Shown here piece after piece: positions 1 to 30,600 of a stretch of DNA of 64,000 nucleotides. The DNA is from Owenia fusiformis (Eukaryota), in NCBI GenBank assembly GCA_903813345.2, contig CAIIXF020000001.1, positions 23,808,001-23,872,000 of the forward strand. Direction: 5' to 3'. Made by a program: the position numbers and the translations under genes. The stretch's first letter is position 1; every line of letters starts with the position of its first letter. The notes under the pieces are model-generated. The model worked only from the letters and a program-made list of their open reading frames with translations. It was not told the DNA's origin and made no database searches.

Positions 1-1830
1 ATTGGTATTATGAAATTGCTTTGATTGTGTTTTTGTATATCACATTTTATGTGTACACGGTAATTAATTACTGGCAACAATTCAACTTGAACCACCATAC
101 ATAAATAGAGATATGTTCTTTTATTTCAAAAACATTTGTTTCACATGACTGTTTGATAAATTGCCTAATATGCCCGAGGTCCTCCGACCTCCTTATGAGG
201 ACAGGAAATACTAGGACTATTAAATACGTTCTTACCTGTAGAGTGTCATTTATTAATGTACGGTAATTGATTTCAGATTAACCCCTCCCCAAATATCAAA
301 TGAACAATCATGTTTTTCTTCTCAAATAAACTGATTTGATTGCTGCTCCTTTGCTAACAAACAGTCTTGAACGTTATTCATTCAAATATAAATACACTGG
401 CGGATCCAGGGGGGGGGGGGGCAAAAAATTTGTAGGGACTCAGAAAATGGGCATATTTTGGCACAAGGCAATGAAAAAGCTTCCTTCAGATATAATTCCT
501 GTAATGTCCTTCCAATCTTAGAATACAGTCAGTATTTATATACATTAACATGCTATTATACCCCCGATTATACCATGTGTTTCAACTGCAATTTTACAAA
601 GATGGACACCTATAAGGCCACGATCACTGGTGACAGAGTCCATCTGTACTTATTTGAATAAATTGCAATTAAATCTGTTGAAAATATAAGATAACCTATG
701 AATCTTTTGAAATGAAAAACTACACACTTTAAGATGGATAAATAGCATTCAGTCTAAATATTATTTTAATATAATATAAATATACATCCAATAATTTATT
801 AATACACAAATACATATTTATGATGACAATAGCCTTTATTGCAAAAATGTATCAGCAAAAAGGACTCCATGAAAGACATTGAAAGTCTTGCCTCAAGACC
901 CTGGACCCAACCCTGCTTCGACAACAGTTGAAGTAGATAAGAGGGGGGGGGGGTCTTGAACCAAAACTATTACACGAAGAGTTAATCATCATTTGCAACC
1001 CCAGCTGCTCCTTACTATAATGAATATACATGTAGTCATTTTTTTTACTTGTGTTCTCATGTAGCGTGAACTAAAGTTAATGTACATTAAACATCACAAT
1101 TTATACTATTAAATATTAGACCCATTCAGGTTAATTAATTGTTTAGTGTGCATAAATCAAAAAGACTCAGTGACCAAGATAAAATTGTATCATAAGATAA
1201 AGGGGCTGATGTCTTGTACTTATGACAAAGATGTGCAAAGAGATATGACAAGATTATAAAGCCAAGAAAAGCTCGTTTGAAGGTTTTTCGATAATCCAGG
1301 AAGTATCTCTAAACAGATAATTAATTTGCATGGGCCTTATAATAAAACAAGGCTATGAAAATGCTATAAATATAATGCCTTGAACTGAACACAATTCTGG
1401 CTAGTCATATTATATTTATGTTCACGATTATTACTCACAGCATTTTGTATCAAAATTATGGATTCATTTACCACGCTGGGTGAAGGCAACTCAATGCAAA
1501 CACTTACAGAGAGCTGAATTGCTTCAGATTAATTTTGATTTGATATTAAAAAACAAAGCCAATTTGAAAAAGAAATTTTCAGGTTTGATTTTCTGAAGCT
1601 TGTTCATATACATATACAATTGTACATGTACATTTTTAGCATTAGGTAACTTATCTTAAACAATTAGCATAGGTTAACTTGTCTTAAATATATGTAAATT
1701 GAGCCTTCCATGCCAGGGGCCTAGAAAGGGAGAAAATATTTCACAAAAAGTAGTTCTGTTAATTTTTGATATTTTCAAATGTTGCATCTGCCTTTACCAG
1801 CGTGATTAATGACAGCAGCTATAGAGAAAT

Positions 1831-2272
1831 TCATGTTGAGATTTTAATAGTTTTACGTGTGTTGTTTTCAATGACAATTTTATCCTGGTAATTCTCAGTA
1901 CTAGGCAACCGTTTCCGTGGCAGCCTAGGTATAGGGTCAGCATGCAGAGAATCTGTCGTTGTGTTAATCATAACGAATCCATTCTCAGTGAAACAATTCT
2001 CTACAGTAGGCCTATCATCACTACCATTATCTGTTTCACCATTCACGTGACAGAATCCATTGTCATCATCATCCGAAGCAGTAATGCCTGTATCATCAGC
2101 AATGTTGCCATGGTTACCGTATCCATATATGTAGAATAGGTTATTTACTCGTACGACAAAATCAGTTAGGTTCGGATAAGAGTTAATAATGTTAGAGAAG
2201 TCGTGACGAGGCAATGTGGCATAGCGAATTATGTAACAATGAGCAAATACAACAGCATCCAGTTCAGTTGGG
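1831..2272 (-). CDS. MTX2: Metaxin-2 alternative terminal exon C (paralogous duplicate, long acidic tail); isoform 354 aa
   Basis: Acceptor tttgttttcaattctag|C CCA ACT GAA CTG GAT, same phase. Open 147-codon frame PTELDAVVFAHCYIIRYATLPRHDFSNIINSYPNLTDFVVRVNNLFY... aligns with the MTX2 C-terminal helices. Confidence 0.78.
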
Positions 2273-5200
2273 CTAGAATTGAAAACAAATGTTTCAATTA
2301 TTCCATCTGCCACAATTGAGAGTGTAATGTTAATTTAGCATTTTCTTAAATCTGAATCTGAATCTGAATCTGGGTCATATACAAAACATCAGCCATAAAG
2401 CATATAAACTCACACATTGTTTCATGAACTTTCAAATACTGTATTCTATAGACTTTCATACGATTTCCCTGCACCTCATGATTCTAGATGCATTTATTTA
2501 TAAGTCTTCTAAATCTAAACTATAGCATTGGTTAACCAGACTACCACCAGCAAGATGTCCATTCATTTTAATTTATTTTACTACCAAAGTTTAAAGAGTT
2601 CAAGAAAATAAGGAAATTACAACATGCCCAACAGCCTAAGCCTTGCAGGGAAGCAAATTATATCAAATAGTATGGATTATTGTTTAAATTCAGTTGCATT
2701 ATCAGATTAATATGGTCATTAAAGTTGCAATATGAAGGTGTTGGACTTATTCCAATTATTGTTCTGAGAATTGCTTATTACATTTCAATCAAATATCACT
2801 ATCATAAAAAATGCACTTAATCCAAGATGTAAAGTTGTAATTATTCTACAATGAAGCATGGATGTATCTGTATCTTTATACACGCATACGTATTGTAAGC
2901 CTAACTATTATATCCTATGTCTTTACATTCCTTGGAACTATTTTCAAGGCTTACTAAAAGAGCCCTTGTCAAACTGGGGTTATTGAGGGTCAAGGTCAAA
3001 GTCACATCTGACAAATCAAAGGTCAATACAGTAAACAGTGTAGATCCAAACACATCTCTAGTCTGAACACCTCTCATTGTGAAAACTTTTTCTTGATGCC
3101 AATTTTGTTTTACTAGTATAGTATCCCTTTGACACTCATTGCAATGGGATGTCAAGGTCACCTGCAAAGCTGATCTCTTACGAGTGTTGGGTTTACGGTC
3201 TGAGGTCATTCAAACAGTTACACTAAATAAACATGTGCCAGGGTTTCTGCCATTGTTTATGTCCCATTCAAATGAGTAATCTACGAGTTGAATTTAATTA
3301 GTGCTTACATGATCCAAATACTAATGTAATCTTACTGCCATATAATATGGGATGGTGATTAAACTATGGCTCATTGGCTCTCAATTTAAGACGTGAAGTA
3401 GTGCAGATAATTAACAAGTCTTAGCATTATTGGTCACAAGACACTGTCTTTTCCCACTTTTTTATCCCAAAATTTAGAATTGCCAAGTAATTTTCCCAGC
3501 AAGACCAAGACTTGATCTTGGAACTAGTCTGCTCTTGCATATGTAAAAGATTCAAATTGAATAGGTAAGTGTAACAGTAGGGTGCGCTTACAGCTAGCCT
3601 GCCTGCCCCCCCCCCCAATCCAGACAAACGCACATTCATCAACACAATACAACAGTATGAGGGTATTTGCTTTTAATATTGGAGCGAATAAAATAGCTTA
3701 GTTCATCCTGAAAATTCGGGAATATGTTGTGATTAGTTTGAGATTGGTGATGCAGAATGTGTAAGATTGTGCTCTAATTTACATAAAAAAAATTATTTAA
3801 TAAATGTGATCTTCAGTACAACACACAGAAAGATTAATGAAAACCTTTCAACATAATTTAATGTATGTAAAAAAACTTATTAACTCTTCAGCAGTTGTGC
3901 AATTAATCGCAATACAACTTACAATAGCATAAATAATCTAATAATTGGATTTGCTCAGCCTTAAGGGGGTATCAACACTTACATGTAGGTTAAGGAGCTT
4001 CACAAAGCCCATTTTGTCTAAGAAGCCTCGCAGGAAACCTTGACCTATTAAACTGACCTTGACCCTTCGGGATACTGAATGTCAGGTAGTCCTAAATACA
4101 ATTCTGATCTTTGTCATTTCAGATGATTGTGATAAAGATGGCATTGATCTTATGTGACATTTATACTGTAATAATTAAGAGCTTCAGTGAGCCTTAAAGT
4201 GAAAACACCCATAAATATTGACATCTCAAGTAGCATAAATTTACCTGTAAATGTGGCATTGAGCTTTCATAACCTGAATGGTGTGACATTGAGTCCAAAA
4301 ATTGCAAAATCGATTGGCATTTGACACATTGGGTTACCTTGATTCCATCCCTCAACGTTTCAATTTAAACCTACATTCCCTCTGATGAATCCTGCCTTGT
4401 TTGGTGACTTAGTAATCATAGATCACAGTGTAACCATATTCATCCCAGATACGACAAAGTCATAAATGCACATACCAAGAGGTGATTCTATAATGGAAGA
4501 GCCTGCTTTGTGAGTTTTAATATTCCACATTTGATATCAATACTTGATCAGATGTAACACTTCAAGGATAAACTCACCAAACGTAAGAACATGAATGAAT
4601 CTGCTTTGACATTTTCAATTCCAACGCAACTAACTCTTTCTACTATAATCATTAATTAATTAACACAGCAACTATGTACTCATTAACTAAAGCACCACAT
4701 TAGTATTAAATCTTTGCATGGCCTATTTCATATGATCTTAATTTTATCTTTTTATGACTAATTTACTGGTGTAGGTCAGATATGGTTATTAATTCAATTC
4801 ATATGAATATTGCTAAAAGGAATTATATTGTCAGTGATCTAAAATGTAATTTGATAAAAGTATAAGCTACATCCTTATTATAAGTGAGTGAGAACTGATG
4901 GAGATATCATTTGATGAAACTATTTTATTAATTTCATTATGTAATTGCTCCCATCTTTTAAAAAGCCACGGTCTAAAAAGAAACTTTGCCTCAATAAAGA
5001 AACTTTGCCCCACTCTTTGGTCTAAAAAGCACTTAACATGTAAAAGTTGAGGTAGTGTCGAGATTTTTAGGAAATATACAGGATTTGTATATGCTCAAAA
5101 TCACCCTCAATCTACAGAAACTCTAAAGGAACATGTTATTTCATTCTTCAAGCACTGAGTGCTCTCAAGGTTTGCTGTAGAAAGAAATAAGCAATTTGCC

Positions 5201-5860
5201 TCACAACATGAGAATATCATCCATTGATATCAATGATAAAATTAATATAGGATTGTGGCTTGTATAATTCCCCAATCAGGCAATATGGGAATTATAGAAT
5301 ATTTAAAAGAATGGATAATTTCCTCCTCATGGAGTTGCATGTGGGTGAATAAATGAATGATAAATCCTAATTGAATACGAAATTACATAACTTGCAACTC
5401 ACTGATACCATGATGTCATTTTGATGTACATTTATTTCCATCTGATTAATGGATTATAGAATTAAATTCCAGCAAAAGAATAGCCAGACATTACATAATG
5501 TTCTCTAGTTAATTATGCATAAGCATCAGGTGCATCAACAGATTGCATTGTGATATAAGGAACAGAATATGAGCAATTTATCTAATTTTATAAAGGATCT
5601 AGTGCACCCGCCATTATGATCTCCATATGAACAAAATGAATCATTTTTAGGTGTAACATAAAGAATACAATGTCACATAATACTGTTGAAAATATTTAAG
5701 CGTTTGGACCCACATGGGCTGAGGTTGAGGTCATTAAGTTCAGCAAGGGTGTATTGACTTGCCATTGGATGTGGTTCATTGACTTAACATGTGGATATCA
5801 TCAGATTCCAATGAAGGCCATTGGTTTCTATTGATTTTCACAAAAATACCTAAAATACAC

Positions 5861-5963
5861 TATGACCTGAATCGATTGCAAATTAAATAATTTCACAATA
5901 TGACACAAATGGTATATCACATCAGATGTGCAAATATAAAGTTTGCAATCGATTCAGGTCATA
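5861..5963. repeat. Perfect 22-bp inverted repeat with 59-nt spacer (mini-MITE or hairpin)
   Basis: TATGACCTGAATCGATTGCAAA (5861-5882) and its exact reverse complement (5942-5963); starts and ends in TA. Confidence 0.8.
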
Positions 5964-6759
5964 CTTCAAATTAAAGGCTTAGACATTTTTTTCATCATTT
6001 TTTTCCCTACAAAATGGCTATAGGAAAATGCTTCAAAAGCAACTTTTACACTTATGAAATCCCATACAACTTTGTAAATCCAAAGATTATACTGTTATGT
6101 TTCATTAATTAATAACATATTTGGATAAGATGTAGGGATGTGTAGGATGCAAATGGATTTTGACAGACACAAAAACACTTCCTGGTTTGGCATCTCAACC
6201 CCTGTACACTTTATGATTGAATATTGGCCCTAATAAGTGGCCCATTCATCAATACAGTGCTGAATATAGGTCAAAAAGATACTAGTGTACATATAAATGT
6301 AATAATAAAAGCAGTATTTTTATTTTGAAAAATCAGATGAATTATTTTTTTCTCATGGGGAGATCCCAATGGAGGGTGTATAAGGTCCTTTGTTACTTGA
6401 ATTATGCAAGCAATGCCAGACAGTTTGCGTGCATTTTAGAATCATGTACAGAAGATCATGCTAGGCCCTAAAAGCTAGCTCACAAGTGAACAAATATCAT
6501 CGTTTTGTCTTCACAAAGTTTATTTTTAACAATACTGCAACATGTGTAGCACATAAATACATGAAATACACTGAACAAATCGGTTAAAACAATCCGAATT
6601 AGATTCATACACAAAGGTATAGAAAACAATAAGCAAACGACGGGGTAATATAAGTGTTCAGTATAGGTAAGATAATGAATGGAAGCACACGCTGTATTGA
6701 AACATATTAAATAAGTTTTACGAGTTGCTATTAAATCCTAGTGCCTAATTCATTGAAAA

Positions 6760-7018
6760 TTAATCTCCATTCAGTTTAACAAAACTATCGTCACTATTTT
6801 CTCCATTGCTAGTTTGTCCATTGCCCTCCTGGTGGCGCTGAATTTCAGCTGTGCTGTCATTACGCCAAATCTCTGTGAAGTATTTATTGTCAATGTGAAT
6901 GCAGAATGCTGCAAGGTTTTCAAACTCACCAACAATGTGAGCTAAGTCCATCTTAGGTTGTGAAGTTGATAAAATAGTGAATAAGTGACCGAAAACTAGG
7001 GCATCGATCTCAGATGGT
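6760..7018 (-). CDS. MTX2: Metaxin-2 terminal exon B (closest to canonical MTX2 C-terminus)
   Basis: Acceptor ttgctcttacag|A CCA TCT GAG ATC GAT completes the phase-2 Arg codon. Encodes [18 protein letters not shown]...[14 protein letters not shown]...[11 protein letters not shown]. Confidence 0.9.
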
Positions 7019-10000
7019 CTGTAAGAGCAACATAAAATCTGCTTCATAAAACACTCAAAACCCTCAATTTTACTTATTTTTACAAAAACAATGAAAATTT
7101 AGAATTTTATAAAAGATATCTACACTATGTACAGTACAATATTCAAGTAACATGACGTGTTATTGTATTACTGACAAAACAAAAGCTATGCCATCTATCC
7201 TATGACTGATAAATAATTTTAACGGTTATCAGATGTTCTGAATCTTAGTCTACGATTATGTCTAGATTTACCATTGAACACAATGGTTGATTTTTCAGCG
7301 TCATTTTCATGTGGATGTTCGAGATTGTAGAACAATGCACCAACAGTTTGACACAGGTTGTTAAGGTTACGGTGACTTGAAGCTATCTCTATAAAGAGAT
7401 AGTGAGATAGGGTGTAGTCAGATAGGGTGTTAAGGTGTGCAAACACTGCAGCATCAAGCTCACTAGGACTGCAAGGAAACAGACAAGGAAACAGACAAGG
7501 AAAGCATGCATAGAAGACTAATACAGATCAACATGTACAGAATTGTAGCCAGGGACAGTTTCAAGACATTGCAGATCAAAATGGCTGATTTTCAAATGTA
7601 CTTCATGAAACAATATTAGAGCAATTTTAATGTTGTTTGTTATTTTAATGTTGCTAATGTTGTTTTTGAAAAATAGACCCTTGGCCGGGGTTAATGTTGC
7701 AAAAATCAAGACTTTGTACAATGTACTTTACTGGCAATTCAGATGATTCTAATGATTCACTAAAATAATAATCTAAGCTAAATATTCATATTGTTGATCT
7801 AGTTCTAATTTATACTTTCATTTATCTCAACTGGCTACAATCCAATACTGTAAAATAAGGGGAAGAAAATAAGGTGGAAATGTTGCAAGGTTCTAGCATT
7901 AATACATACAAAAAATGTACATAAGTAAAACATGTATATATTTGTAGAATGCTCAAGATTGAACACCTGAAAATGACATTTTACATCGAAGATGTTTGAA
8001 TGTAGATGTCCAATTGACATCTATGATATAGGCCCAATTCCCATTTGTGTTTAATATTGACATGTTTTACTGTATATACATGGAGTTGGTTGCAGCATGT
8101 TTCCTATTTATACAACAGAAAACAAATGTTTGCAAATTGTTTTTGGTAAGATAAGCAAAGCAATGTGCTATACACGAGGTAATCTGTTAAAATCAGCTCA
8201 ATATCACAACATACAAAGTACACGTACACCCACACACACATTCTCCAGTGCACACGTATAACTTATACTGTGAATTAATTACTCAGTATGAACATTCAAT
8301 GAAAGAAGACAATTTTGATGCAATGTTTCATATTCTGAATAATTTGTTGACATGTACAGGTACTAGACATTTCTTAAGACAGTTCTAGACTTATGTGGTA
8401 TCGTACATTTCAACATGACTAGGGTGACATCTATTACAATCCCTGGTGATTATTGACACAAAAATGTAATCCAGGTACAGAAGGTTGTATGATCATGATT
8501 AGTGTTCTTTATAATCTAATTTTATATGATTTTCCAAAACTTTCAATTGTGTGCATCCATTGGGAAGCAACAGCGACATAAAGCCTTTATTAAATGTAAC
8601 ACAAAAAAGCTAACAATTACACAATGCATCAAAATATGTCAAACCATTTGTGAAAAGTGCTCCACTTAAATTAATAATTAAACCCATCAAAATATTCTTA
8701 CCGATTGCCGAAGAAATATTGCTGATTGCCTAGCCTTTCCGAAAGTGCTGAGCAACACGTCCTAACCTCCTCACAGACCTCTTCATATGTCTTCTGTGCC
8801 CAGCCAAGAGCCTTCAGTTTGCGCCCGATCTCCATCTGTCGCTTCCAAGGCAAAATTATATTCAGAGGCCAAGGGTAGGGGGAGCCGTACCTAATTTTAG
8901 TCACCTCTGTATAAGTAGTGGTCTCACACCATGTTAAATAGAGCTGAAAACATATGATTAGGTTTACTGTATTTTTTTCTCTAATTTCAAATGTATCTTT
9001 CATACTAGCAGCAATGCAAAAGTTATGGGTTTCTAAAGTTTATTTCTGTGCCCATTAACATGATTCTTTTTTGAAACAAAACTTTGATCATATTATATCA
9101 TGGAGCATCGTACCTCAGCATTCACCATAACTTTGTCAATTAGAGACATATAAGCTCTCATCTCTGCTCTCTCTGAATCATTGAGGTTGTCACTCAGGTG
9201 ATGACCCTGGAATAACAAACAAAATAGACATTTCAATAAATCCTGACCCCATTATGGCAAAGCTTGACAGAATGAGAGTGCCAATGGGTAAATAGTTGTG
9301 GGTTTTTGATTCACGTAACACATTTCAATTTAGGAATGAGAAGTAAAAGGAATAATAACATTCATCAGAATTCCTGAATTTCATATTTCTGATGTTTTGG
9401 GTCCTTAGGGCTTACCTAACCGCTTCTTTTTAACAATGCAATAATTGTATCACATACATAGTAAACACATTAAGACAGAATGATATGAATAAGAAGGGCA
9501 TTTTTATGAAACAAGTTTGGAATTTCTATGCTACCAATGTTACAATTTTTTTTATTTTTAATAATCATTTATTTCATATATATACTATACATACAATAAT
9601 ACAATAATAACGTTTGACTAGGTTACAAGTAACATTATTGTCAAACTGTTACAATTAATGGTGATAACATTTGGAGAACCTCTTAAATGCTATAATTAAC
9701 AACATATTATGAACATTTCTTCAACCCCTTGCCCCTACTTGTGCAGTAAAATATGTCTGAGGTAAAACCTACTGGGACTTTAAATGTGATTACATTGGTG
9801 AAAGGTGTTCACATTTAGATGGTCTGACAAAATTGAGAAATTAAGAAAAAGAGTCTATATATTAAGGTGTTCGCTCAAGAGAGGTGTTCATAATTGCAGG
9901 TTTTATTGTACCGTATCTGGAGATAAAAGGTAACATTACACTTACCTTTGTATTGATAAAGGCTATAATTGGATCAAGCTCTGATATAAGGAAAGGCCCT

Positions 10001-13000
10001 ATTTTCATGAATGGCACTATACCTGTAACGGAAGAAGTGCTTTATAATACTGAAAACAATTTTCAATCAGTTGAAAACAATTTTTAATCATATTTAATTG
10101 GTTCACTGTCATTACACACACGTTTTTGATAATAACTTTGACCCATGATTTGAACATTTGCCCTATATTATTTGTTATTTAGCACATGTAAACTATATAA
10201 GTGTCCAAATCATGGGTTAAAGTTAAAACTTGTATGGGATACTATGTTAAACATTCAACATTTTTAATGTAGCTTGTCTTTTTCAAATGATGTTAAGCTC
10301 AAGTGCATTAATTTGAGATTATCTGATAAGTACTGGTACAGAATTAGATCACTGACGAATGAGTCATTCTGCTCAACCAGAATATATTGTAGGAAAACAT
10401 TAAAACATTTAAACATTTTCTCCAACAACTACATAACTATACAGCAGTGTGACAGTTTGTTTTTGTGAACTCACATTCCATAAGACATTTTTTCGAAATT
10501 TAGGCCTAGAAAATTTAAGTTAAGTGGAGTTGTACAACGTATGGAGAAATGCCTGCAGAGGGGGATATAATACCTGATGGCGACATGTTTTCTGCATTGT
10601 TACGCAGCTCTACAGTGTACTTCAGTCCACACATATTGAGGAACGTGCGAACACTAACACAAGACGCAGCATCAGGAAGCAAAATCTGTTTATCTACAAA
10701 GTTCAATTCAATAATGTTAATTGTACATTTGATTATGCATTATAGCCACTATTAACTTATACAGGGGAGCTACCCTATTGACAATTCAAAAATGCAAGCT
10801 ACCCCTCTGAAAATCTTTTATTACCCTGTCTTTAAGATGAAATATTTGCTGGAATTACACCATGCATTTAAGAAGGTGCCTACCTAAGGTTTTAACCCCT
10901 TTTGAAAAATAGAATCACGATTGTGGTTTTACAAAAGCGCTTTTCCAAAACTCCTAGGACCCAAGTCACTAAAAACGCCTCAAATTGTTAGGCACTTATA
11001 ATAATGGATGGGACCCAAAAATGCAATAGGTCATCAAATTATATCTCAAAAATTGAAAGTAAGTTCACATCACTGGCACAAGTCTCGGTTTTCTCTTCGA
11101 TGCTAAAAGAATACATTTATTGTTGATGTACACATATGCTGGATATTCTCCACATCTACATCGTTAAAAGTGCACAAAAGGCATTTTAGAAATGACAGGT
11201 GTAATTTCAAAATAAAATCCCTAAGGCGCTTTAAAAATGTTGGTGTAATCAGGATGGCAATTTTGTAAAGCGCTTTCTACTAAAGTGCTTTTTGCGCTTT
11301 TTCTGGTGTGATTCTAGCAATTAAGACCAAATTAGATAGAATAAGAATTTAGCATGTAATGTCTAATTTTGCAAGACATGTACAAGTACATATTTACAGT
11401 TATTTATTTATTATTTTTTTTATACATTATCAATTTATTTCATCATAATCATGTTTTACAAGAATGGCTTGCCAATCGCTTATAAAGCATTATAGGCTAA
11501 GCTAGAAAATACATAAATTTAATTACAAATGTAAATGCATGTAATATGGAAGAATAGCAGCAATTTGGATAAGAAATGGGAAATAGGACAGGCTTGGGTC
11601 ATGTGTCATAGTCTCAGTGAGGGGATAGTAGGCATAGTTAATACTTGCTTGGAGGGTCCCATAGAGAATTATGATTATGTTAAGAGTTCTCCAGTAAAAA
11701 ATTGGCAACAAGAGCAAAAAGTTCATTATTTTGTGCCAGCGATAAATCGTCACTGCCATGTTTCAGAAAATCTTTAAATTGGCTTTTGTTCCTTATAGCT
11801 AAAGGCTTGTAAGTCTCTACAAGTGCAAGAAAAGTGTTCCTATTTTGTGCTTTATTTGGACAATAAAAGAATAAATGTTTTGGAGTTTCAGGCACACCAC
11901 AAGCGCAGTTTGGTGTTTCAATATAAGTAAAATTATGGCCATATAGCTGAGCTTTAGTGAGCAAGTCAACTCTGAATCTATTGAGAATTATTTCTTGATT
12001 TCTTTTTAACTTTAATTTAGTAGTTGGTAAAAAGGAGGGCTTAGGGATTTTAATTTTTTGTAAGTTATTGAAGCTGGTAATTGTTTTGCTTTCTCGAATA
12101 TACTTCGGTAGCTTGTTCCAGTGGGAGATAGCATTGAGGACAGAAGAGTTTCTAAATTTGGTTGAGCTTTTGGCAGGTATTTTGAAATCAGGATTTGATC
12201 GGAGTTCTCTGGGATTTTGAATCCTCAGAGGTTCAAAGATGTCTTTCACATAGCTTGGAGTGAGATTATTTTTAACTCTAAACATGAATTTATTTATTTG
12301 CATTGACCGCCTTGTTTCTAGATCAGGCCATGTGAGTGTATTCTTTACCTTAATTGAACTACTACCATGTAAACATCCACTGCATATAAGAGCAGCTTGA
12401 TAGAATAATTTATTTAATATGTTAAGGACACTTTGAGTAGAGGAATCGTAGAGTATTGCGCCATATTCAAAGTGTGGTCGAATGAAAGACATGAAAATTG
12501 TTTCGAGGACATTGGAATTTAGTTTCTTTTGCAGTGATCTGAGAGGATTCAGGAGTTTGTTTACTTTGTTTCTTATGGCAATTATATGTTGTTTGTTAGA
12601 CATGTGCTCGTCAAAGGTATAGCCTAAATGTTTATGCGATGTTTCCCTTTTTATTAAAGCATTATTCATAAAGGAATTGTTCACTTGGCCAAGTTTAATT
12701 CTGGAGTTATGAAAAATTATTTCGACACTTTTTTCAGGTTTAAAGTTGAGATTCCATTATTTACAGTTATTGTATCTACATGTATATTACATGGTCATGG
12801 TGTAATTTATAGCTTGCTGGTTGAATAACACTATTAAATAACATTATAAAATATAAATATGCATGAAGAAAATGTATGATTTCAAATCAAACACAATATA
12901 TTTTAATGATTTCTATTCAAATTACTAACATTGAAAATGACCTTCATTTTCCAAATATTTCATTTCTCAATATTTTGATGATTATGACATGTTTTGGTAG

Positions 13001-16000
13001 GTATGACATCTTAACTTACTTTCATATGGCTGGAAAAGGCAGACATTATCTGGCCATGGCTCACTTGCTAAAAATACAAAAATGAATAATTAATGTTAAA
13101 GGAAGTCCAGTAGAGGGGGTTACCATATTTTCTTTTACTTCAATGTTGTTGAACAAAATCAATGCTTACTGGAAAGTCAAGAAAAAGTCAGGCTATGCTA
13201 AATTTAAAAATAAACAATAAGTTGTTTGGAAATATTTTCAGCATTAAAAGGAGAACTTATCTTGCACTTCACTAGTGCTGAACCTAATATACTCAGTACT
13301 AGACTTTGTTAGGTGGGCTAAATATCCATTTATACTGGGGTATATATAAGTAAGTAACATGTATGTTAATCTGTGATAATACCTTGGTTATATACACATG
13401 TACTTTGATCTCTCAAAATACCTTGGATATGCTTATTTTTATGCTATAAAGAGAATCTCATCCCTATCTTAACAGAGATAAGTATTGACATGAAATTTGT
13501 AATTCTCAAACCTCACAACAATACACTTTATCTGGAACCATATATATTGTTCCACGTTAAAATAAGACTTTACAAGTTCATTCTCTGAATTAAAGTATTT
13601 TATAAAAGTTATTAAAGTATAAGTCACAAAAGAAATGTTAAAATATCTTAATACTTTTCTTGTTTTTTATACATTTTATCAAAACATTCTTCTCTACATT
13701 CTTTTCTGGGTACATTAGTGCACTCCTTGTGTAAAAGTGAGAGATGTAGACATTGTGGGGAAGGAGTGATTCAAATTTGAAAAATAACATGTGACCCTAT
13801 TGAGGGTTGCAGCGAAAATTCCAAACACGCACCATGACCTTATGATTTACGAATAGACAGACCCCGACCAGTTGCCACTCTCCATAGTTGGGTTCACACG
13901 GTTGGTGGTCAGTGGTCAAAAACAATGAATATGATCAACATGTATTTAATTTCGAATTATATAAATAATTTAAGGTTACACATGATCATTATTTTACCCA
14001 TTTCCCTCTTATCCTGTTTTGAGATTTTCATTTTCTTTTACCCACCAACTCATTTTTGTAGCCGTCAACTCAGTTTTTCATTCTCATCTCATTTACCAAT
14101 CAAATACTTAAATAAAATCTAAATGTTTGTTACATTTACCAACCATAGTGTCTGTAATTTCCGGTGGTGACGGTGGCCCAGAAATGAGCTGACTGCCCAA
14201 TAGTATCACAAAGAGGAGGGAAAACTACAGAGCACAGAGATGACCTCATTACTTCTCTTGCTCACCATATTTGTCTACTATAAACGAGGGCGAACGTAAT
14301 ACCCGGAACGTGCCTCGTTTATTCTGACAGTGTGTGTTACCCCCCATTGGACATGAGGCCCAGAGCTGAATATCTATTAAACTGACGATAATCAATTAAT
14401 CATGAAATACATTATCGTGACGCTGTTGGCTTCATTCCCGATCCAGGAATCCGAGATCCAATGACTCTATATGAAACAAGAAGCAAGTTCTCATTGTGGG
14501 AGATATTTATGTTAATGACCATGTTTTCAACTATTGCAAATTAGTCTACGGTATTATGTTTGGTAAAGAGTGTCTGGGAGTGTCAGGGACTGCCAACAGA
14601 TTGCAATTTTTCAATCCAAAAACTGAATTATAATTTTTGGTGGTGTCAGTTAAAGCTTCAATAAAGACCATAAAAGAAATTTGGGAGTCATTTTACCTTT
14701 CCTGGGCTATTAGTGCAACGTTTGGCCTAATGTCTTCTTCGCCATACCTATTTTCTTAAAATATATGCACTTGTCAACGAATACCATCAATCAAGACTTG
14801 CAAATAGACTTCTAAATAAGCAATTGAAAGGATGGACATCATGCATTTGTTTTTTGAAACATTTCTGAATCTCCGCCATTTAAGATTCTTACTGCAGCTG
14901 AGATTAGATAAGACCGCATGTTTATAGTATAACCATGGTTGTCTGATATAACCGTATGCATGGTACACGATATGACTGCCGTCGACAGTCTATTACCAGC
15001 GACTCTTGCTGTTAGCCTGGCCCACTGATGAAGAAAAATCAAAAAAAATTGAAGACTAAAAAACGTCAAATCTACCCATATTCAAGGTCTTATTGACACG
15101 CGCATCATGGTACATAGCAAACAGAATGTTGGATAGAACATTAGGTGAAAACGGGTCTGGAATCCAATGACAATATCACTGGGAAATCATTAAAAGGTAT
15201 GTGAGCATTTTTCTGTCGATGTAAAATGGTTTCAGGAGAAGATTACTGGGGATTTAGGATGATTAGTGATTGTGAATATCAGCAGAAATTATGTACGTTC
15301 GGGGGTTTTCTTTGTAGCAAATGAAAATAGATGTTAGTATTGATGAAATATCCAAACTTTGATATATTTTGACAGCAGTTTCATGATCGTTGAATATGTC
15401 TCTACACTATTTACTCAACTTTAATTGTTGACATAATCACAACCTAATGTTTTTACAAAATCAAAAAGCAATGCACGCTATAAATGTAACTTTTTTTCAT
15501 TCATTCTTCTCACCATGTACCCTTTGCATTCGTTCGACTTCACTTCTAAAAGAGAGCTCCGTCTTCACTCTTTCAGTAATAATAAATCTCTGATCTCACA
15601 GAGCAATCAGAGTTCGTCATCGAGATACGGACGACTTTCTACATGGTCATTTCCTATGACATCACGGCAAAGTTAATGAGCATGTATATAGCACACGTTC
15701 CTTCCACTTCGCTGATTTGTTGAGAAAGGGTCAGCATGGTAGATTTGAAATGATTTATTACCTGCCCTTAAGAAAAAAGCCATGGTAACCATGGTATTCC
15801 ATGGTGCGTCCATGGTAATCCATGGTTTTCCATGGAAATTCATGGTTTTTCATGGTATTTTCCATGGAAATTCATGGATACCCATGGTAATCTTCCATGG
15901 ATATTTACCATGATTTTCCGTGGTAATTGGTGGTTTGGTAATTGTTTTTTCATGAACATGCCATGTTTTTACCATGACACTTGAGTTGTAAAATCAACAA

Positions 16001-18288
16001 TTTTGGCAGGTTTTGTTTTTACCAAAATCTTCAAAATTGAATCAATATTTTAACGAATGAATCCAAGCTGGATTGAGAATTAATCTCATTAATCATAGAT
16101 AAAAGAATATGACACCCCCCACCCTTAAATCTTTGAGAAAGTCAACCTTCTTGACAAAAGCTGGCTTCAGGCTTGAAATACAACCATGTTTTTACAATCT
16201 GAATATATGTTTAGTACATTCTGTACATAGTGTCATATGACAAAGAACTGTTTACTTAATATTTTTTTAATTGATGATTTGACCCCACAATTAAAAGTAA
16301 TAATTTGTTTGCTGGGATTTGCTATCATTTAACTTTGGCACTTATGTAAAAAAGACAAAATAAGTGATAAAATCAGCTCACTGGATTCCCTTATTGCAGA
16401 CTGAATAAACATTTTTACTTGGAGTAAATCCTATTTGGTTTTATTTGATCAACAATGAGTTTTTGACTTGCACTGTCTACACTCACAGACAATAATAATT
16501 ACTGAAGAGGGAGCATTAGAAAGAGTAAGATTATCATATATAATAACAATTAAGATCAGAATATTTAAGAATTGTGCAAATGAACTCTTATAATCTGTTG
16601 TAAAGAGATTAATCTTTTGACATTAATTTGAGAGTTAAGACACCTAATTAACATAGAATAATGGCAACCAAATATTTAAAAATTATGCAAATGATTATTT
16701 ATTCCTATTCAAAGACAAATCAATTTTAATTACTTATACTATGTTTCATGTTTTAAGCCAAATGATGTTGTTAACCCCCTCCCCTTCCTTCATGCAACTT
16801 CTTTTTAAATATAATATTCTTACATAGACAAATTGATTTTTTATCACTTAGGTATAACATTTCAGTTTGCAGCCATAGGCTTGTGTTTAATCCCCCATCT
16901 CAATTTCAAGTCAAAATTCTGTAAAAGTATATACTTTTCTGTGGATTTTTTCAGATAATATGCTTATAAAGGTTGAATGGGACTTAATTTGGAGAAGTTC
17001 ATTTAGAAACATAATGTATTATTCATTTTTCTGCTTCCAAAAGACCAAACAAATAGCCCATGGAAAACCATGGACTTTCAAAAGATCAAAAGAATAATCA
17101 TGGAAAACCATGGCTTTTGATTGCACTTTCCAAAACATCAAAGAAATAACCATGGAAAAGCATGGCTTTCGATTGCAATCAACCGTCTTCCATGGCTTTT
17201 GATTGAAGTTTTCTCAACTTCAAAGAAAGAAACCATGGTTTGTGATTGTATTCTCAAATGTACGAAATGTAATTTAAGAAAATGAGTTATTTATTTCTTA
17301 AATTACTTCATATTGATTTTTAAAACTGAAAATTAAAGAAAGTATTGAAATAAAACAGAGCTTGGGCTAGTTTGACTTAATCTTTTTCAAAGGAAAGAAG
17401 TGTTTGGCCTAAAAAATAAGCAATCTCTATCTAGTCTTGATCTACACAAAAGACCTTTGCACAATTGTTTTTGAAATCTTGTGACCTACTCTCTGCTTTG
17501 CTGTTTCACATATTTTCTCATTTGTAAGCTGAGTCTAACATTCGATGAATGTTCTTGCTATACCTTCAAAATGAAATGTCCACCCTTTTTTCTCAATGAT
17601 AAGTCTCAGTCAAAACATTCATTTTGGAGATTTTGGTAAATACAAATCCTACCAAAATTGTTGATTTTACATCTCCGTGACACATCCATTAAAAACCAAT
17701 TACCAAACCAACAATTACCACGGAAAATCATGGTAAATATCCATGGAAGATTACCATGGGCATCCATGAATTTCCATGGAAAATAACATGGAAAACCATG
17801 AATTTCCATGGAAAACCATGGATTACCATGGGCGCACCATGGAATACCATGGTTACCATGGCTTTTTTCTTAAGGGTGGGCTATCACAAGCATCAATCTT
17901 TAGGGCGGGACTGCTAAACTGTAATATAGTCTATACTAGGAAGAGGGTAGTTTATAACTAGTCTAGCTACTCAACATGTAATCCAACAAGATGAAGTCTT
18001 CGAATTGGACTTGTAGTTGTACATGACCTGAATGAATGAAAGGATTCGATGGGCTGAGACTTAAAATTATAATTCGAACTTTGTCAATTTAACATGTGCC
18101 TCTATGGAGAAACAGTAGGTTACATTATTTGTATCAGTGTTTCACCCATTTTTATTTTATGTGGGCGATAATATGTGAAAGTCAAAAGTTCAATTTTGAT
18201 AATTCATTAAAGCTGTAATAAGTAAGCAAATTCACAATAACATACCTCCTAGTTCAACTGCTATAGGTTGCTCTATTAAACTAGCCAT
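6760..18288 (-). CDS. MTX2: Metaxin-2 (mitochondrial outer-membrane SAM-associated, GST fold), canonical isoform using terminal exon B; 293 aa
   Basis: Exons on the minus strand: 18288-18246, 13067-13020, 10693-10574, 10022-9946, 9206-9114, 8943-8702, 7018-6760. All introns are GT-AG with matching phases (1,1,1,0,0,2). Translation [42 protein letters not shown]...[13 protein letters not shown]...[11 protein letters not shown]...[32 protein letters not shown] is recognisably metaxin-2 (recognised from memory, no search run). Confidence 0.93.
7219..7468 (-). CDS. MTX2: Metaxin-2 alternative terminal exon A (paralogous duplicate); isoform 290 aa
   Basis: Acceptor tctgtttccttgcag|T CCT AGT GAG CTT GAT, same phase as exon B. 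Open 83-codon frame [20 protein letters not shown]...[16 protein letters not shown]...[11 protein letters not shown] aligns with exon B. Confidence 0.75.
11405..12757 (-). mobile_element. 5'-truncated CR1-group non-LTR retrotransposon (3' end of ORF2) in MTX2 intron 2
   Basis: ORF 11680-12757 encodes the post-RT region [10 protein letters not shown]...HKHLG...FIRPHFEYG...[18 protein letters not shown]-rich tail near 11405-11421. 14-bp TSD TATTTACAGTTATT at 11391-11404 and 12758-12771. Confidence 0.92.
15514..15563 (+). repeat. About 50-bp dispersed repeat, second copy at about 56554-56604
   Basis: CATGTACCCTTTGCATTCGTT(C/T)GACTTCACTTCT(T)AAAAGAGAGCT(C/T)CGTC at both sites. Confidence 0.75.
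15765..17876. mobile_element. Non-autonomous DNA transposon with about 270-bp TIRs built of CCATGG-containing subrepeats (CMC/EnSpm-like)
   Basis: Left end CCCTTAAGAAAAAAGCCATGG, right end CCATGGCTTTTTTCTTAAGGG. Inverted similarity spans about 15765-16040 vs 17610-17876. Flanked by TG on both sides (possible 2-bp TSD). No transposase ORF. Confidence 0.85.
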
Positions 18289-18615: not shown

Positions 18616-21600
18616 ATGGACTTCGCAAGCTTCCTGAGGCAATTGCTAATTGTTTGCGAATCCTGTACAAATGGCGGAGACGAAGACACTACAAAGTATT
18701 TTTGTAGGGAGTTTGAAAGGGTAAATATAACCTTTTAAAAGTTCACAAAGATTCCTAATTTTTTCCACTTGGATTTTTAAATGTCCATTTCAAATATTTA
18801 ACTTCTGTGTTGTAGATTGCATAGGCCAAGGGTAAAGTAATAGTAAGCCATATATAGAAGAGACAGGTGAACAACTCTGACTTGGACTACTTGTTAAGAT
18901 GGAGATTTCAACAATATTTAGTGTATTATTTTCAAAAAGCCATGGGGAGTTGATAGAAAATTGATAGTTTGTAGCTCTTACCTAAGATTGAAACTCAGTC
19001 AGATGATATAGAGTGAATAATGCTGTCTAAAAGAGAGAATTTCTGAAAACCTGCAATTGCCTGGCAAGTTCATTAGTAAACAAGTGATCTGATTGGTCAC
19101 TGCTGACCTCCCTGACCTCCAACAGTGACAATCAGTTTCAGCTTGCCAGGCAATTGCAGATATCCATAGTTGTTGTTTTATATGCAGTATTATATGCAGT
19201 TTTTAGATAAAGATTTGAAAAAAACAATGATATAAGTTTGAAAAACACTTTGAAGAAGATTTTGGAGAGATTTGGGAATACAATTTGATACCAGTAAGGA
19301 GAACTAGTGCCAAGACTAAAAAAATTTGAAAAATTTTCAATCTTACTTGTGGACCTGTCTCTTCTATATTCAGCTTACTATTACTTTTCCCTTGGCCTAT
19401 GGTAGATTGTGTGTCATGAATCATTTCAATCATTTGGCAACCCAAAGATTTATTCTGAGTAAATTGTTCATTGCTTGTTGCACAGGGAAGGGGTCTAACC
19501 TGTAATATAGCACCAACTGAAAATTCAAATAAAAAATTCCTTGTCATCTCAAAACAACCATGAAGTACATCATTTGATAGATAATTGGTACAGCAATACA
19601 AAAATATACATGCCGATGCGACCAAAGTCATACCAGTCGAGAGTTTTAGAAGGATATTTTTCTGAAAAATCCGTAAATAACATAAAATTTCGTTATTTTG
19701 ACGTTTTATGATGTTTACTTACCTATTTTACTTGTTGATCGATAGTTGCTTTATAATATCCTGTGCTGTTATAGTTCTATATGTGTGACCTTCTGTGTTG
19801 CGTTTAGTAATATACTTAGAAATGAAATTTTCTAAAAAAATTTCAATATCCAGCCCCCGACATGTTGGAAATAGGCACGACTGCACTGGACGAAATTTTT
19901 TGTAAGGCATGGCAGTGTCTTGGTATAAACACTGTGGCAAGCAGAATGAATCATCAAAAATTGTTGAATGTAGTCCCCCTTTCAACATTGATGGATTCAG
20001 TTTCAAATTTTAAAATATTATCAGAATTCATGATGAAATTTCGCGAAAAGAAATTTGAGTCAAAGTTTTGTTGATATTAGTTCACTGTACTTGGGGTTAT
20101 CGATTAATATGCGCAGTGCAACCAATCACTTTCTCTTGATTTCGCAATCACGTTGTACGAGCAGAGGCTAATTATTTGTCCACACTTGACCACATATGGG
20201 AGTATACATCCGGGTCACTACAATGGCGAAATGAATATTTGTGATGTAATGATGGTTTTGTTGAGATGAATATTTCTGAAACATAAGTAAAGTTCGTAAG
20301 GAGACATATGAATTTCAACAACAATAGGAAGTTGTCAATATAAGTGAATGATCTGGAAAATCGGGTAAGTCACAGCGGAGAAAATAACGCCATAAAAGGA
20401 AAATGAAATCAGTAGAAATTTATCAAAATATGGGTTGATTATGTTTTTCGAAAAAACTTGTTAGTTTCACTTACAAAATATCACTATTAAGGTGCCTGAA
20501 TGCAATTTTCTTCATTTTATTGCATTTATGTGCTTATAACCTATCCAGTGAGGTGCTGCAGTATGAATATTTTTTACATTTTCCTGCATTTTTAGGCCTT
20601 GATCAAAATGTGGTAACTTTACGTGGATAACTTCCTTTTTACTTTTATATGCTTATTGAGTCAAGGCTTGCTCTATTGACTTATTTTTCCTTCTAGACGA
20701 ATTCTTAAATTGTGGCTTGTTGATGAACTAGGATATACATATACATGTATATTATTGTTAGTACAATGTTGATACAAAACAATTGATAAGTCGTATAGTT
20801 GGCATATTTTCTTGAATTTAACATTTAATGTCCCAAGCTCCCCCAAACTGCAGAAAAACATACACCGTAAATCATATTTACCAAAATGAGTGTCTCCAAG
20901 GCTTCATACCAGCGTATACATAATGCATTTTTCACGAGTTAGACCTGAAATTTCGCTAAAAAGGAGTACTGGGGTAATCTCTGCCAGGTTTGTATATTGT
21001 GGTTAGCTTTTAATGGTAAGTGCTCAGAAGCAAATAATTCAAGTGCGCAAAATAATCAAATAATCTGATTGGTTTTAGCTTAAGTATGCATGCACACAAT
21101 GTGTGCCATGTTTTTTTCTAGTGATTTAGTTTTGTTCCATGGAGTTTGTCTTTAGATTTAAGAGAACTTTTTACCTATAATAGCAAAACTTTTGTTTTAT
21201 TTATGCATTCTATCTATCAGATAAGAGTTTCAGGTATATAGGCAAATCCATTTTGGAAGGAGCACTCTGTTTAGTTTGAAAACCCACCCTTTATTCATTC
21301 TGATACTGATAGCATCTTTCTGTTTCACCTGAAACATGCTCTGATATTATGAGGCATATTCTGTGATCTGAGTACATCAGATGGGAAGAGTTATAACTGT
21401 CAATAAGTGTGTTAGTTATCATGTTATCATTTAACTTGATGTCAATACATTACATAATAGGCATTGTATTTAACAGCAGATACTAGCACAGCATGTTCAC
21501 AAGTTTAATGACCCCAGTTAGATGAAATATGAGCTGGGATGAAAGATCTCAAAATCCTAAATTTTGGGCTCTCTTGGATCGCCAAATCAAGCTCATTATA

Positions 21601-27600: not shown

Positions 27601-30600
27601 TTTTATCAATATTTCAAAAAATTACATTGAAAGTACATGTGATAAACAATGTACAGGACAATATAAAAGTGCAATGATAACACTCCTTTCACCTTTATGT
27701 TTCCTTGGAATGCACATTGATACATTGACACACAGATTTTATTTGCAAAATCTTGATTTTGATTAAAGCTCACTGAACTGACATGTTTTATGAAAAACCA
27801 ATCTTAATTTAGTAATTTTATGGTTTAAACAGTTTCAGTTCTTGTATGATAACAGAAAACAAGAATTCCAAAAATTAGTGAAAATCTACATTAAAACTTG
27901 ATATGTTGTTATAGGAATTAATGCAAAACTTACTTTAATATCTAATCTTGAATGTGTCATATTTGTTTTCTTTTCAGTTTGGTGACAAATTCCTTCAGTT
28001 CAATACAGAGTTGTGTCTCCTGGCACTGAAAATAGAGACTGGTCATGTTGAGAGGGCATATGCCACTAATGACTGTCATGGTCTAGATAATGCCGCAAAT
28101 GCTCTAACATTCACCTGTCACATCATGTCTTGTCTATACAGAGACAGCAACCTGAAGATGCGTCAAGTCTGCTCATTAACTGCCCTGTCTCTAGATCCCT
28201 CTGAGGATCTCTACTTCCTCGTTGAGGCTTTGTTTAATATCGTAGAAGACACTGATAATCTGGACCTGGCAAATAAACAGGTCGTCAATAACAGTATCAA
28301 TGCATTCAAGCAGTTCCTTAGCAAACATGAGGACAATGACCAACATGGAGATGTAAAGGAACAAAAGAATGCTGACAATAGTGACAAATCAAGTGATGTT
28401 TCAATTCACCAATCAGAGGAATCTGCCGATCATAAGGCAGATAATACTCCGAATGACAAATCAGATGACTTACATCGAGGTAAATCACCCAAAGACAACG
28501 AACATAGAAAAGAAAAGCATGCTCAAGCTATTCCAAATAGAACTGATATGAATAATAATAAAGGGAAGAAGAAAGGAAAAGGTGAAGAGGAGAATAACTC
28601 AAAAAAGGAGTTTTCTCGTAGTTTTGAATCAGTATTCAAGAAATTTGCAGGTGTAACAGATACAAAAGTTCCCGAAGAAAAGAAAACTGACCCTGAACCC
28701 AAATCATCAGTTCAACCTGAATCCTCTGTACCTAAAAATGGGCAAGTAGGTGGAGGATTCATGAAAAACTTCCATGAGTTCATTCGCCAAAACACTGCAA
28801 GAAAGCAGTCATGCTGGCTGAGCAAAACTAAAGAAAGTGATTTGTCTAAGTCATACTTAAAGACACCATCAAGCATGGGGGCAACTCCACCTGAATCTGA
28901 TGAGGATATACAAGGGGAATACCATATTGTAGTGAAGGGTATTAATCCAGAGACCATAAGTGAAATACTTCGTATTTTAGCAAGCATTCGAGCAAAAACT
29001 CTAGATCCAAGTCTACCATGGGAAAAGCTCAAGCATCGTATTCTACGACATCTTTGGGTGAATGGATACCACTTTGATGTGCACAAGAATGATTTTTTCT
29101 CTGGTACATCTGCAGTAGTTCAGGTTAAACCTATAAGTCAGAGTGTACTTGACAGCATTACTGAGACTGAATTGCAGAGTGAATCAAACAGCCCTGTAAA
29201 GAGCAGTAGTCCAATTAGGGTCAGTAGTCCAGAAAAGGGAAACTATTCTTCAAGGAACAATAGTCCTATAAAGCTAAACAGTCCTATGAAAGGCAACAGT
29301 CCCATAAAGTTCAATAAATTACAGAATCATTCAGTTCAACAATCCAAAGAAAGTTCTAGTCCAGGTCGTAGACCAAAATTCAAGGGTATTAAACAAAAGA
29401 CTTCACAGAGTGAAATTGAAAGTATTACTGAAAAATCTCAACATCAAGACAATGTAGACAAAAGGCCATCGATTATCCATGACAGTCCGGTGCGGAATTG
29501 TTTTGATGCCCTCAAAAACATAGATTTTACATCAGCATATGAGCATCACTTAACAGAAAGCCATCCTAATGCAAACATCCTAAATGACAAAGACTCTTCC
29601 AGAGACGGACAACCCCCATCGCCTTCCCAAAGTCCACCCCTCTTATCACCCTTTGACAATTCCACAGAAGGGGACCATAGTTATAGTATAAGACAAAAAT
29701 CCAATGGTTCTACTGAATCTCAGTCCTTCAAGAACACAATGAACGATAGTGTAAAAAGGATTAAAATTTCACCTAGGAGACAAACATGTCCCGTTTTCTG
29801 TAATGACGATGATGAAGTGGCTCTGTCTAAGATACAAACTGCGATAAGAATCAACAAGATGGAAGCGAAACTCATCACCAAGCATGCCATCGAGAACAAG
29901 GTGAGACTTCTTTTACTTTCTGAAACTTCTAATCCTCTCTCTGTAGCTAGAAATTTCAGGGATGGTGATAGAGATCGGCTTGTTGCTGATGTTGCTGCCG
30001 TAGTAGCTGGAATGAATAGTATGTCCATAAAGACCAAGATGTATGGTCTAGATGTTCCACAAAGCAATGAGAAATTAATGTCTACATTTAAGCTGTCATT
30101 GAGTGAGATCATAGAAAGGTTACCATACCATGTAAGTCAATCCCATCGTCAGCATGAATTTGAGAACCCCAAAAAGAGGGACAGTTCCCCAATGCATGTT
30201 TCTGGAATTGATAATATTGAAAGACCCCCTCCTCTCCCTATGTCATACACTTCATACTCCAATTTCATTCCCTTGCTTGATGAAATGTTGACTAGTCTAG
30301 AGAACGATATGGCTTTAGAGAAGAAGAAATTAATGGAAAGACTTGGGAAAGCGTTTCAAGATATGTGTGATAAGTCTGTTGCAAGGGAGAACGTTACTTC
30401 GAGTGTGGAAATCGAACAGAGTGAACCTCCATCTGATGAGATTACAGACTTTACTGATCTTGGTGGCAGCAAGAATCAAACACTTACAAAAAATTTAAAT
30501 CGTTCAAATATTGATGAACTATGTAATCAATATCACCATGATTGTGATCCAGATACTATTGGAGAGCCTGTAAAGATGGATGCTGCTACTCCAGTCGAAG

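Follow-up and report, generated by a model that had tools for sequence, protein, structure and literature searches.

Two well-known classes are alternative exons that arose by tandem exon duplication, and alternative last exons. Docking-site/selector RNA pairing is a feature of some insect arrays of mutually exclusive exons, and is not required for membership in that class. Tropomyosin genes, with their paralogous 3' exons, are an example of alternative last exons, and bypassing of the proximal acceptor and polyadenylation (poly(A)) site is the usual logic by which a distal alternative last exon is reached. The machinery for inserting beta-barrel proteins into the mitochondrial outer membrane includes metaxin-2 as a core accessory subunit. 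In vertebrates and most invertebrates, and nearly always among the animals compared here, this protein is listed with a single C-terminus. Here, we describe the metaxin-2 (MTX2) gene of the marine annelid Owenia fusiformis, located in a 64,000-nucleotide stretch of contig CAIIXF020000001.1 (GenBank assembly GCA_903813345.2, positions 23,808,001 to 23,872,000 of the forward strand). This whole stretch is hereafter called the window, and positions are numbered from its first letter. The last coding exon of this gene was found to be present in three diverged copies, A, B and C, which constitute a real and old tandem triplication. Copy B is the default ending of the message, and copies A and C are candidates for minor or condition-specific endings.

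The gene has seven coding exons on the minus strand, from 18288 to 6760. In a splice-path computation, exactly one GT-AG spliced path was found to reproduce the 293-residue database protein P0005, which is named 'unnamed protein product / Metaxin-2 [Owenia fusiformis]' at its source. The gene is metaxin-2, encoding a subunit of the mitochondrial outer-membrane SAM complex: the protein shows the Tom37/GST_N_4 and GST_C_6 domain set, the names of its relatives agree, and so does its fold. The precomputed Pfam assignment of P0005 comprises PF17172, PF10568, PF13410 and PF17171. The protein has 230 relatives at E ≤ 0.001, and among the matches listed (the best 120) those bearing a name are called metaxin-2 or metaxin-2-like. 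As compared with the single-C-terminus metaxin-2 of vertebrates and most invertebrates, the Owenia protein has the same Pfam domains and is 48–64% identical over 82–98% of the query among the matches listed. The coding exons, including the three copies of the last one, are as follows.

18246 to 18288, minus strand: coding exon 1, with the ATG at 18288; from the sole P0005 path and a tblastn match
13020 to 13067, minus strand: coding exon 2; from tblastn and the P0005 path
10574 to 10693, minus strand: coding exon 3; from tblastn and the P0005 path
9946 to 10022, minus strand: coding exon 4; from tblastn and the P0005 path
9114 to 9206, minus strand: coding exon 5; from tblastn and the P0005 path, with the RNA joint 9114>8943
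8702 to 8943, minus strand: coding exon 6, the last common exon, holding the end of Tom37 and the start of GST_C_6, with a phase 2 donor
7219 to 7468, minus strand: exon copy A, the most diverged of the three, made up of 1 base, 82 codons and a stop; basic tail
6760 to 7018, minus strand: exon copy B, 1 base plus 85 residues plus stop; the orthologous last coding exon
1831 to 2272, minus strand: exon copy C, made up of 1 base, 146 codons and a stop; the sister of A, with a long tail that is first acidic and then basic

Exon 6 ends in GGC AAT CG/gtaaga at 8702 (the slash marking the splice site), in phase 2, and the Arg codon (CGN) is completed by one base from each copy, namely T in A, A in B and C in C. 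The copies lie downstream of exon 6 in the order A, B, C, and are preceded by the acceptors ...ttccttgcag (before 7468), ...ctcttacag (before 7018) and ...caattctag (before 2272), respectively. Counting 207 common residues, the Arg and the copy, the predicted isoforms are 290 (A), 293 (B) and 354 (C) residues long; the B form is P0005, to which exon B is 100% identical. The three copies align without gaps over their first ~53 residues, with P, E, D, A, V, F, H, I and N-L invariant among them, and all match positions 23–64 of Pfam GST_C_6 (E 8e-6 for A, 6.5e-10 for B and 3e-9 for C), exon 6 itself matching Tom37 and GST_C_6 positions 2–20. A, B and C are therefore homologous adjacent exons of one gene with usable acceptors in the same phase. 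The stop-to-stop frames of the window, which has 33% G+C, have a mean of 14.5 codons (n = 8252), and 26 of the 8252 reach 100 codons. The frame holding C, at 167 codons, is the seventh longest, and those holding B and A have 112 and 102 codons, respectively.

An initial annotation of this DNA, made from the letters alone, had described exons A (7468–7219), B (7018–6760) and C (2272–1831) with AG acceptors, a shared phase and their own stops, and every one of these sequence statements was confirmed. The gap-free shared core, the strong divergence and the open frames that it reported were likewise recovered by alignment and by the Pfam match, and its assignment of the segment to the end of the metaxin GST-C domain agrees with both GST_C_6 and the structure model described below. 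Its account of the acceptors as pyrimidine-rich holds for A, and is weak for C: the pyrimidine fraction of the tract was found to be 0.85 for A, 0.65 for B and 0.60 for C, the last being equal to the 60% of exon 6's own acceptor. Its proposal of an old tandem exon duplication also stood, on grounds of synonymous saturation and of the confinement of the repetition to the last exon. The proportion of synonymous differences between copies (pS) is 0.73–0.95, which is saturated, and that of nonsynonymous differences (pN) is 0.40–0.57. When the 64 kb were searched with P0005 by tblastn, extra matches were observed only at A (E 0.035) and C (E 7e-9), and no second copy of any other metaxin-2 exon was found within the window. 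Since only the last exon is repeated there, the event was a multiplication of one exon and not of the gene.

The identity between copies amounts to 28–40% in protein and 39–52% in DNA, and the copies are therefore no haplotype duplicates. That they could be an artefact of assembly, produced by collapsed or duplicated haplotypes, is hardly credible for this reason, and also because DNA contigs of another individual span both 6389–7831 (A and B) and 1755–2740 (C), with ~1.5% difference from the window. These contigs come from run X1, a DNA-like run whose depth stays near 13 in 29 of 30 bins, including those in introns, and which was used for alleles only. Regarding the order of events, A and C share the derived states V-F-A-H (as opposed to V-F-G-H) and an L-F-Y triplet, and they group as sisters with a support of 0.86 in a tree of 50-residue segments, a short alignment that makes this grouping weak. 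This grouping would mean that B split from the ancestor of A and C first, and that A and C separated later, though they now flank B.

How does this locus compare with the known classes? With arrays of mutually exclusive exons that arose by tandem duplication, it shares adjacent paralogous exons, an identical phase, the same structural segment in each copy, and a conserved core with a variable surface. It differs in that the multiplied exon is the terminal coding exon, so that a choice among copies would also involve the poly(A) site, in that junction reads were obtained for B only, and in that no docking-site/selector pairing was found: among the 25 longest of 43 inverted repeat pairs in 1500–8750, which are short and AT-rich, none links one site to all three acceptors. 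One pair, 7069–7092 with 8136–8159 (24 nucleotides, 83% complementary), brackets exon A and was judged unconvincing, being AT-rich and one of 43 alike. As compared with alternative last exons, in which splicing is coupled to alternative polyadenylation, C has the layout of a distal alternative last exon with its own stop, whereas A would offer a composite terminal exon an alternative acceptor further upstream, and no junction into C is listed in the RNA data considered below. The term "mutually exclusive last exons" is thus inexact for A, which has no poly(A) hexamer before B.

In terms of sequence, B is orthologous to the last exon of other animals, which have just one. Among 119 metaxin-2 homologs, the closest copy was found to be B in 116 cases, C in 2 and A in 1, and the mean identity to the equivalent segment of the homologs is 0.48 for B, 0.34 for A and 0.35 for C; exon B aligns with the end of the single-C-terminus proteins of vertebrates and most invertebrates at this mean of 48%. 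The use of the copies was followed in three stranded RNA-seq runs (X13, X14 and X15) of one study with the same species label, tissues unknown, mapped to positions 1–9300; 6, 6 and 12 in 100 of the respective runs were read, and a junction was listed from 3 reads with 2 starts. The joint 8702>7018, from exon 6 to B, was observed in 23, 16 and 13 reads (total 52), the constitutive joint 9114>8943 in 14, 20 and 22 reads (total 56), and every listed splice from 8702 goes to B. From the comparison of 52 with 56 reads, B is essentially all of the spliced product in these samples. Coverage of the B form runs through its 3' untranslated region to ~6500, just beyond the AATAAA at 6524. Exon B is thus the default ending, reached by the splice 8702>7018 and followed by polyadenylation near 6500. 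Two 3' regions are relevant here.

6500 to 6759, minus strand: 3' untranslated region of the B form, with AATAAA starting at 6524 and a stranded RNA depth of 9–15 in bin 6511–6820; the end is approximate
1241 to 1830, minus strand: possible 3' untranslated region behind C, with weak same-strand RNA, mainly from run X13; the extent is uncertain

Copies A and C look selected as coding sequence, judging from the pattern of their substitutions. By Fisher's test, synonymous and nonsynonymous differences are distributed unequally between A and C (6.7e-9) and between B and C (0.003), and marginally so between A and B (0.053). Among columns at least 90% conserved in the homologs, A keeps 11 of 16, B 12 of 16 and C 11 of 16, and among the variable columns the consensus is matched by A in 7 of 31, B in 14 of 31 and C in 6 of 31. 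In these column counts, the retention in A and C is the pattern of constrained sequence, and not of uniform decay. The polymorphism data on selection come from exon C. Over 1755–2740, the contig of the other individual shows 13 base differences from the window. Three of these single-nucleotide polymorphisms lie within the 442 bp of exon C, at codons 6, 105 and 117, and all three are synonymous (P 0.011; with transitions only, P 0.039). The adjoining 468 bp of intron hold 10 differences and 11 gap letters, a density contrast with exon C that is not significant (Fisher p 0.09).

These constraint signals bear on the principal alternative, namely that A and C are relics of the duplication, dead or never used, that only the B protein exists, and that the RNA over C is read-through past the B poly(A) site or pre-mRNA noise. 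We regard this alternative as a serious possibility, though not as the expected case. Synonymous saturation combined with a long death should have broken the frames and lost the conserved residues; yet the 146 codons of C and the 82 codons of A are open, each copy retains its 11 conserved columns against 6–7 of the variable ones, both keep an AG acceptor in the correct phase, and all three polymorphisms in C are silent. A recent death of the A or the C copy is conceivable.

Several observations weigh against the use of A and C as endings, and most of them also speak for the relic alternative. No joint 8702>7468 or 8702>2272 is listed at the 3-read threshold in the three runs, 6–12% of which were read, and the close match between B and constitutive reads leaves little room for other endings in these samples. 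The initial annotation had proposed three isoforms and a junction check in RNA-seq data: its predicted lengths and the B form were upheld, the junction 8702>7018 was recovered, and A and C have no listed junction. Over exon A, the bins covering 7131–7750 were observed to have depths of 0, 0 and ≤0.06, despite the strongest acceptor tract of the three. The A copy is also the most deviant in sequence. Its branch in the segment tree is about twice as long as the others (1.43, as compared with 0.65 for B and 0.66 for C), its GST_C_6 score of 26 bits is below the Pfam cut-off of 28 bits, and it holds a young in-frame internal duplication of 15 nucleotides, one of two tandem repeats at this copy.

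7472 to 7503, minus strand: perfect tandem repeat of 12 nucleotides × 2.7 (Tandem Repeats Finder, 100% matches), which forms the 85%-pyrimidine acceptor tract of A
7400 to 7430, minus strand: tandem repeat of 15 nucleotides × 2.1 within exon A, in frame and encoding 10 residues; from a repeat search

The 3' ends point in the same direction. No AATAAA or ATTAAA was found in the 200 nucleotides between the stop of A and the acceptor of B, and A is therefore not a self-contained last exon. For C, which lies 4.5 kb beyond the B stop and poly(A) hexamer, the first canonical hexamers (AATAAA) are at 840 and 800, ~1 kb past the stop. An arrangement with A as an internal exon spliced on to B was also considered and rejected: by eye, the only good donor in A, AATG/gtaaat near 7272, puts B out of frame.

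Unlike A, which is silent in these runs, C is covered by RNA on the same strand as the gene, with depths of 2.3, 5.1 and 3.1 in bin 1861–2170 in X13, X14 and X15, respectively. X13 and X15, however, are nearly without depth over the first 100 nucleotides of C (0.06 and 0.19 in bin 2171–2480). In X14, reads cross the C acceptor into the intron (7 at 2254 and 4 at 2303), with a depth of 4.9 in bin 2171–2480 and 1.15 in bin 2481–2790, and this coverage looks unspliced; X14 coverage is also found in the scattered intronic bins 3101–3410 and 4651–4960, in line with read-through. The coverage of C fits unspliced read-through at least as well as splicing, and, as a handful of reads from one study, is thin evidence either way.

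Database proteins likewise speak for B only. Among the matches listed (the best 120 of the 230 relatives), the only Owenia entry is the B form. A full-protein search found no database protein with the A ending, exon A not having been searched on its own. Exon C was compared with longer proteins, and none of 213 candidates has the C ending (proteins of 80–255 residues were not searched with C there); in a library of 1.84 billion representatives it gave 5 matches, all confined to C residues 1–48.

The coverage of C could also be explained by a separate transcription unit, starting between B and C or inside C, in which case C would not be an ending of metaxin-2. X13 and X15 coverage at 1241–2170 with almost nothing just upstream, the peak of X13 depth in bin 1241–1550 (4.1, as compared with 1.6 in bin 1551–1860), and the lack of a listed junction from exon 6 to C are consistent with such a unit. 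We nevertheless consider it quite improbable. No in-frame ATG was found between the upstream stop and the C acceptor, and C must therefore be spliced in order to be read. Moreover, C encodes only the last two-thirds of GST_C_6, which cannot fold alone; there is no other metaxin-like exon between B and C, where a 102-codon frame (2901–3209) has no Pfam match; and the coverage of C is on the metaxin-2 strand.

The reading that we prefer is that the last coding exon was multiplied long ago in the Owenia lineage to give A-B-C, that the default message joins 8702 to 7018 and terminates at the AATAAA near 6524, and that selection has maintained A and C as alternative endings of minor or condition-specific use. 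For C to be used, the B acceptor and poly(A) site would have to be skipped and 8702 joined to 2272, giving a protein of 354 residues whose terminal helices differ and whose tail is longer. For A to be used, 7468 would serve as an alternative acceptor upstream of B, which would remain in the message as 3' untranslated region; the protein would have 290 residues and a basic tail. Splicing-in and translation of either copy are what we infer. That C is a real ending, rarely or conditionally used, is somewhat probable, and we read it as the likelier of the two; for A the same proposition is rather doubtful. The chance that at least one of them is conditionally used stands at about even or slightly above. 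The full arrangement of three isoforms, sharing residues 1–208 and swapping the last three GST-C helices and the tail, is unlikely, though worth keeping in view.

The arrangement is not unique to Owenia among metaxins. The initial annotation had stated that none such was known for this family; a full-text literature search indeed found no paper on duplicated or alternative metaxin exons, yet the statement has to be softened, since hymenopteran models hold an independent second copy. Two papers (PMC12794171 and 10.64898/2026.03.15.711473) proved unrelated to exon choice. In hymenopteran metaxin-2 models, a second, diverged copy of the same exon segment is observed, starting at P-x-E-[LI]-[DE]-A. 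The model from Habropoda laboriosa (P0076, 319 residues) has the diverged copy and then the canonical copy, as do two models from Microctonus aethiopoides (P0126 and P0130, both outside the set of 119 homologs). The Xylocopa violacea protein (P0124, 303 residues) ends in the diverged copy, as does a protein from an unnamed contig (P0093, 483 residues, encoded on an intron-free assembled contig of 1726 nucleotides), and 'isoform X2' of Andrena cerasifolii (P0095) ends in the canonical one. Within the set of 119 homologs, a diverged or second copy of the segment was found in 3, namely P0076 with both copies and P0093 and P0124 ending in the diverged one. The hymenopteran models that merge both copies may be annotation errors. 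In the tree of 50-residue segments, which is weak, the hymenopteran diverged copies form a clade of their own (support 0.95), apart from Owenia A and C (0.86), and the duplication in the two lineages would therefore be independent. The hymenopteran case thus differs from that of Owenia in having two copies instead of three, and in being known from gene models, on which any alternative use of the copies also rests, instead of loci. As a separate observation, four Trichinella models named 'Metaxin-2' (P0125, P0131, P0134 and P0135, 478–610 residues) contain most of the protein twice, which suggests a tandem gene or assembly duplication fused into one model.

What part of the protein would be exchanged? 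In the AlphaFold (AF2) model of the B form, the predicted local distance difference test score (pLDDT) is 88.7, with high confidence to about residue 255 and a low-confidence tail thereafter. The last exon encodes helices at 211–225, 232–238 and 241 onward, plus the disordered tail, and on this model the segment encoded by the copies is the end of the GST-C domain. A Foldseek search with the B-form model returned SAM complex chains (9nk6, 6wut, 6wul and 7btw, E 7e-9 to 1e-5) and ordinary GSTs, its output carrying no statement of which SAM chain is Sam35 or Sam37; a PDB sequence search with P0005 gave no matches. Residues 1–60 of A, given as a chain of their own next to the common residues 1–207, were placed in the predicted fold with a score of 0.83, the best of 3 controls scoring 0.11. 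The mark that A attained was reached by 51 of 78 solved complexes and by 2 of 108 mismatched pairs. At least 90% of contacts are the same from run to run, and the partner pLDDT is at least 74. This predicted pairing indicates compatibility of A with the domain end only, and the pass may reflect the many solved GST-like relatives.

The tails of the three copies differ strongly. Near the C-terminus, metaxin-2 of many invertebrates has a run of acidic and Ser residues and, directly after it, [FYW]-x-[KQRM]-[LIVM]; this combination occurs in 32 of the 54 tails of at least 12 residues among 117 homologs (for example ...SDNGNFVKLP and ...GDYDKLEDL). On sequence, this end motif looks like a short linear motif, and it may resemble an LC3-interacting region. 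The B tail (6760–6800 in the window) carries it as an acidic F-V-K-L motif. In the C tail, a degenerate version (ENGFVMIN) lies internally, with an extension of 45 residues behind it. The A tail is basic (8 K/R as compared with 5 D/E) and has no such motif, so that a product ending in A would be without the conserved acidic F-V-K-L. Two polymorphisms among the RNA reads, at 6814 and 6830 in the tail of exon B, are both nonsynonymous (Q>H and Q>L) and fall within its low-confidence linker; those listed in exon 6 (8749 and 8914) are both synonymous.

Between B and C, the two individuals compared differ by a repeated element.

5587 to 6388, strand not assigned: ~800-bp repeated element, missing from the allele of another individual and not part of the coding design

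The X1 contig was found to join 5586 to 6389 with 10 other letters between them. RNA depth over the element is very high on both strands, which marks it as a multi-copy transcribed repeat, and it is probably a transposon insertion polymorphism. It contains an inverted repeat of 37 nucleotides (5861–5897 with 5927–5963). Within intron 2 of metaxin-2, a 358-codon open frame is present at 11680–12756 (minus strand), and a Pfam search of the intron open frames 2901–3209, 11680–12756 and 19203–19718 gave no match. Elsewhere in the window, the longest open frame by far has 2420 codons (27939–35198, plus strand), in a stretch with a G+C content of 0.36–0.40 and a strong A-over-T skew of 0.19–0.24, and its sole Pfam match, to TPR_Rlf (E 9e-4), is weak and below the cut-off. 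An uninterrupted 393-codon frame at 53418–54596 (minus strand) encodes a ZIP zinc transporter (Pfam Zip, E 2e-58), and a 558-codon frame at 56956–58629 (minus strand) has a reverse transcriptase domain (RVT_1, E 7e-28) and is probably a retroelement.

If A and C are unused, the locus still documents the time over which duplicated exons may keep open frames and conserved motifs without being expressed in the RNA sampled, and serves as a warning against inferring isoforms from sequence alone. If they are used, SAM-complex subunits that differ in their terminal helices and tails would come from one gene, and such a system would have two separate origins, one in an annelid and one in Hymenoptera, providing a handle on the function of the C-terminal module and of the acidic F-x-K-L motif. 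Overall, should three isoforms exist in Owenia, and the same swap have evolved independently in Hymenoptera, the C-terminal module of metaxin-2 would be a place where evolution has repeatedly tuned the choice of partners, or turnover, at the mitochondrial outer membrane.

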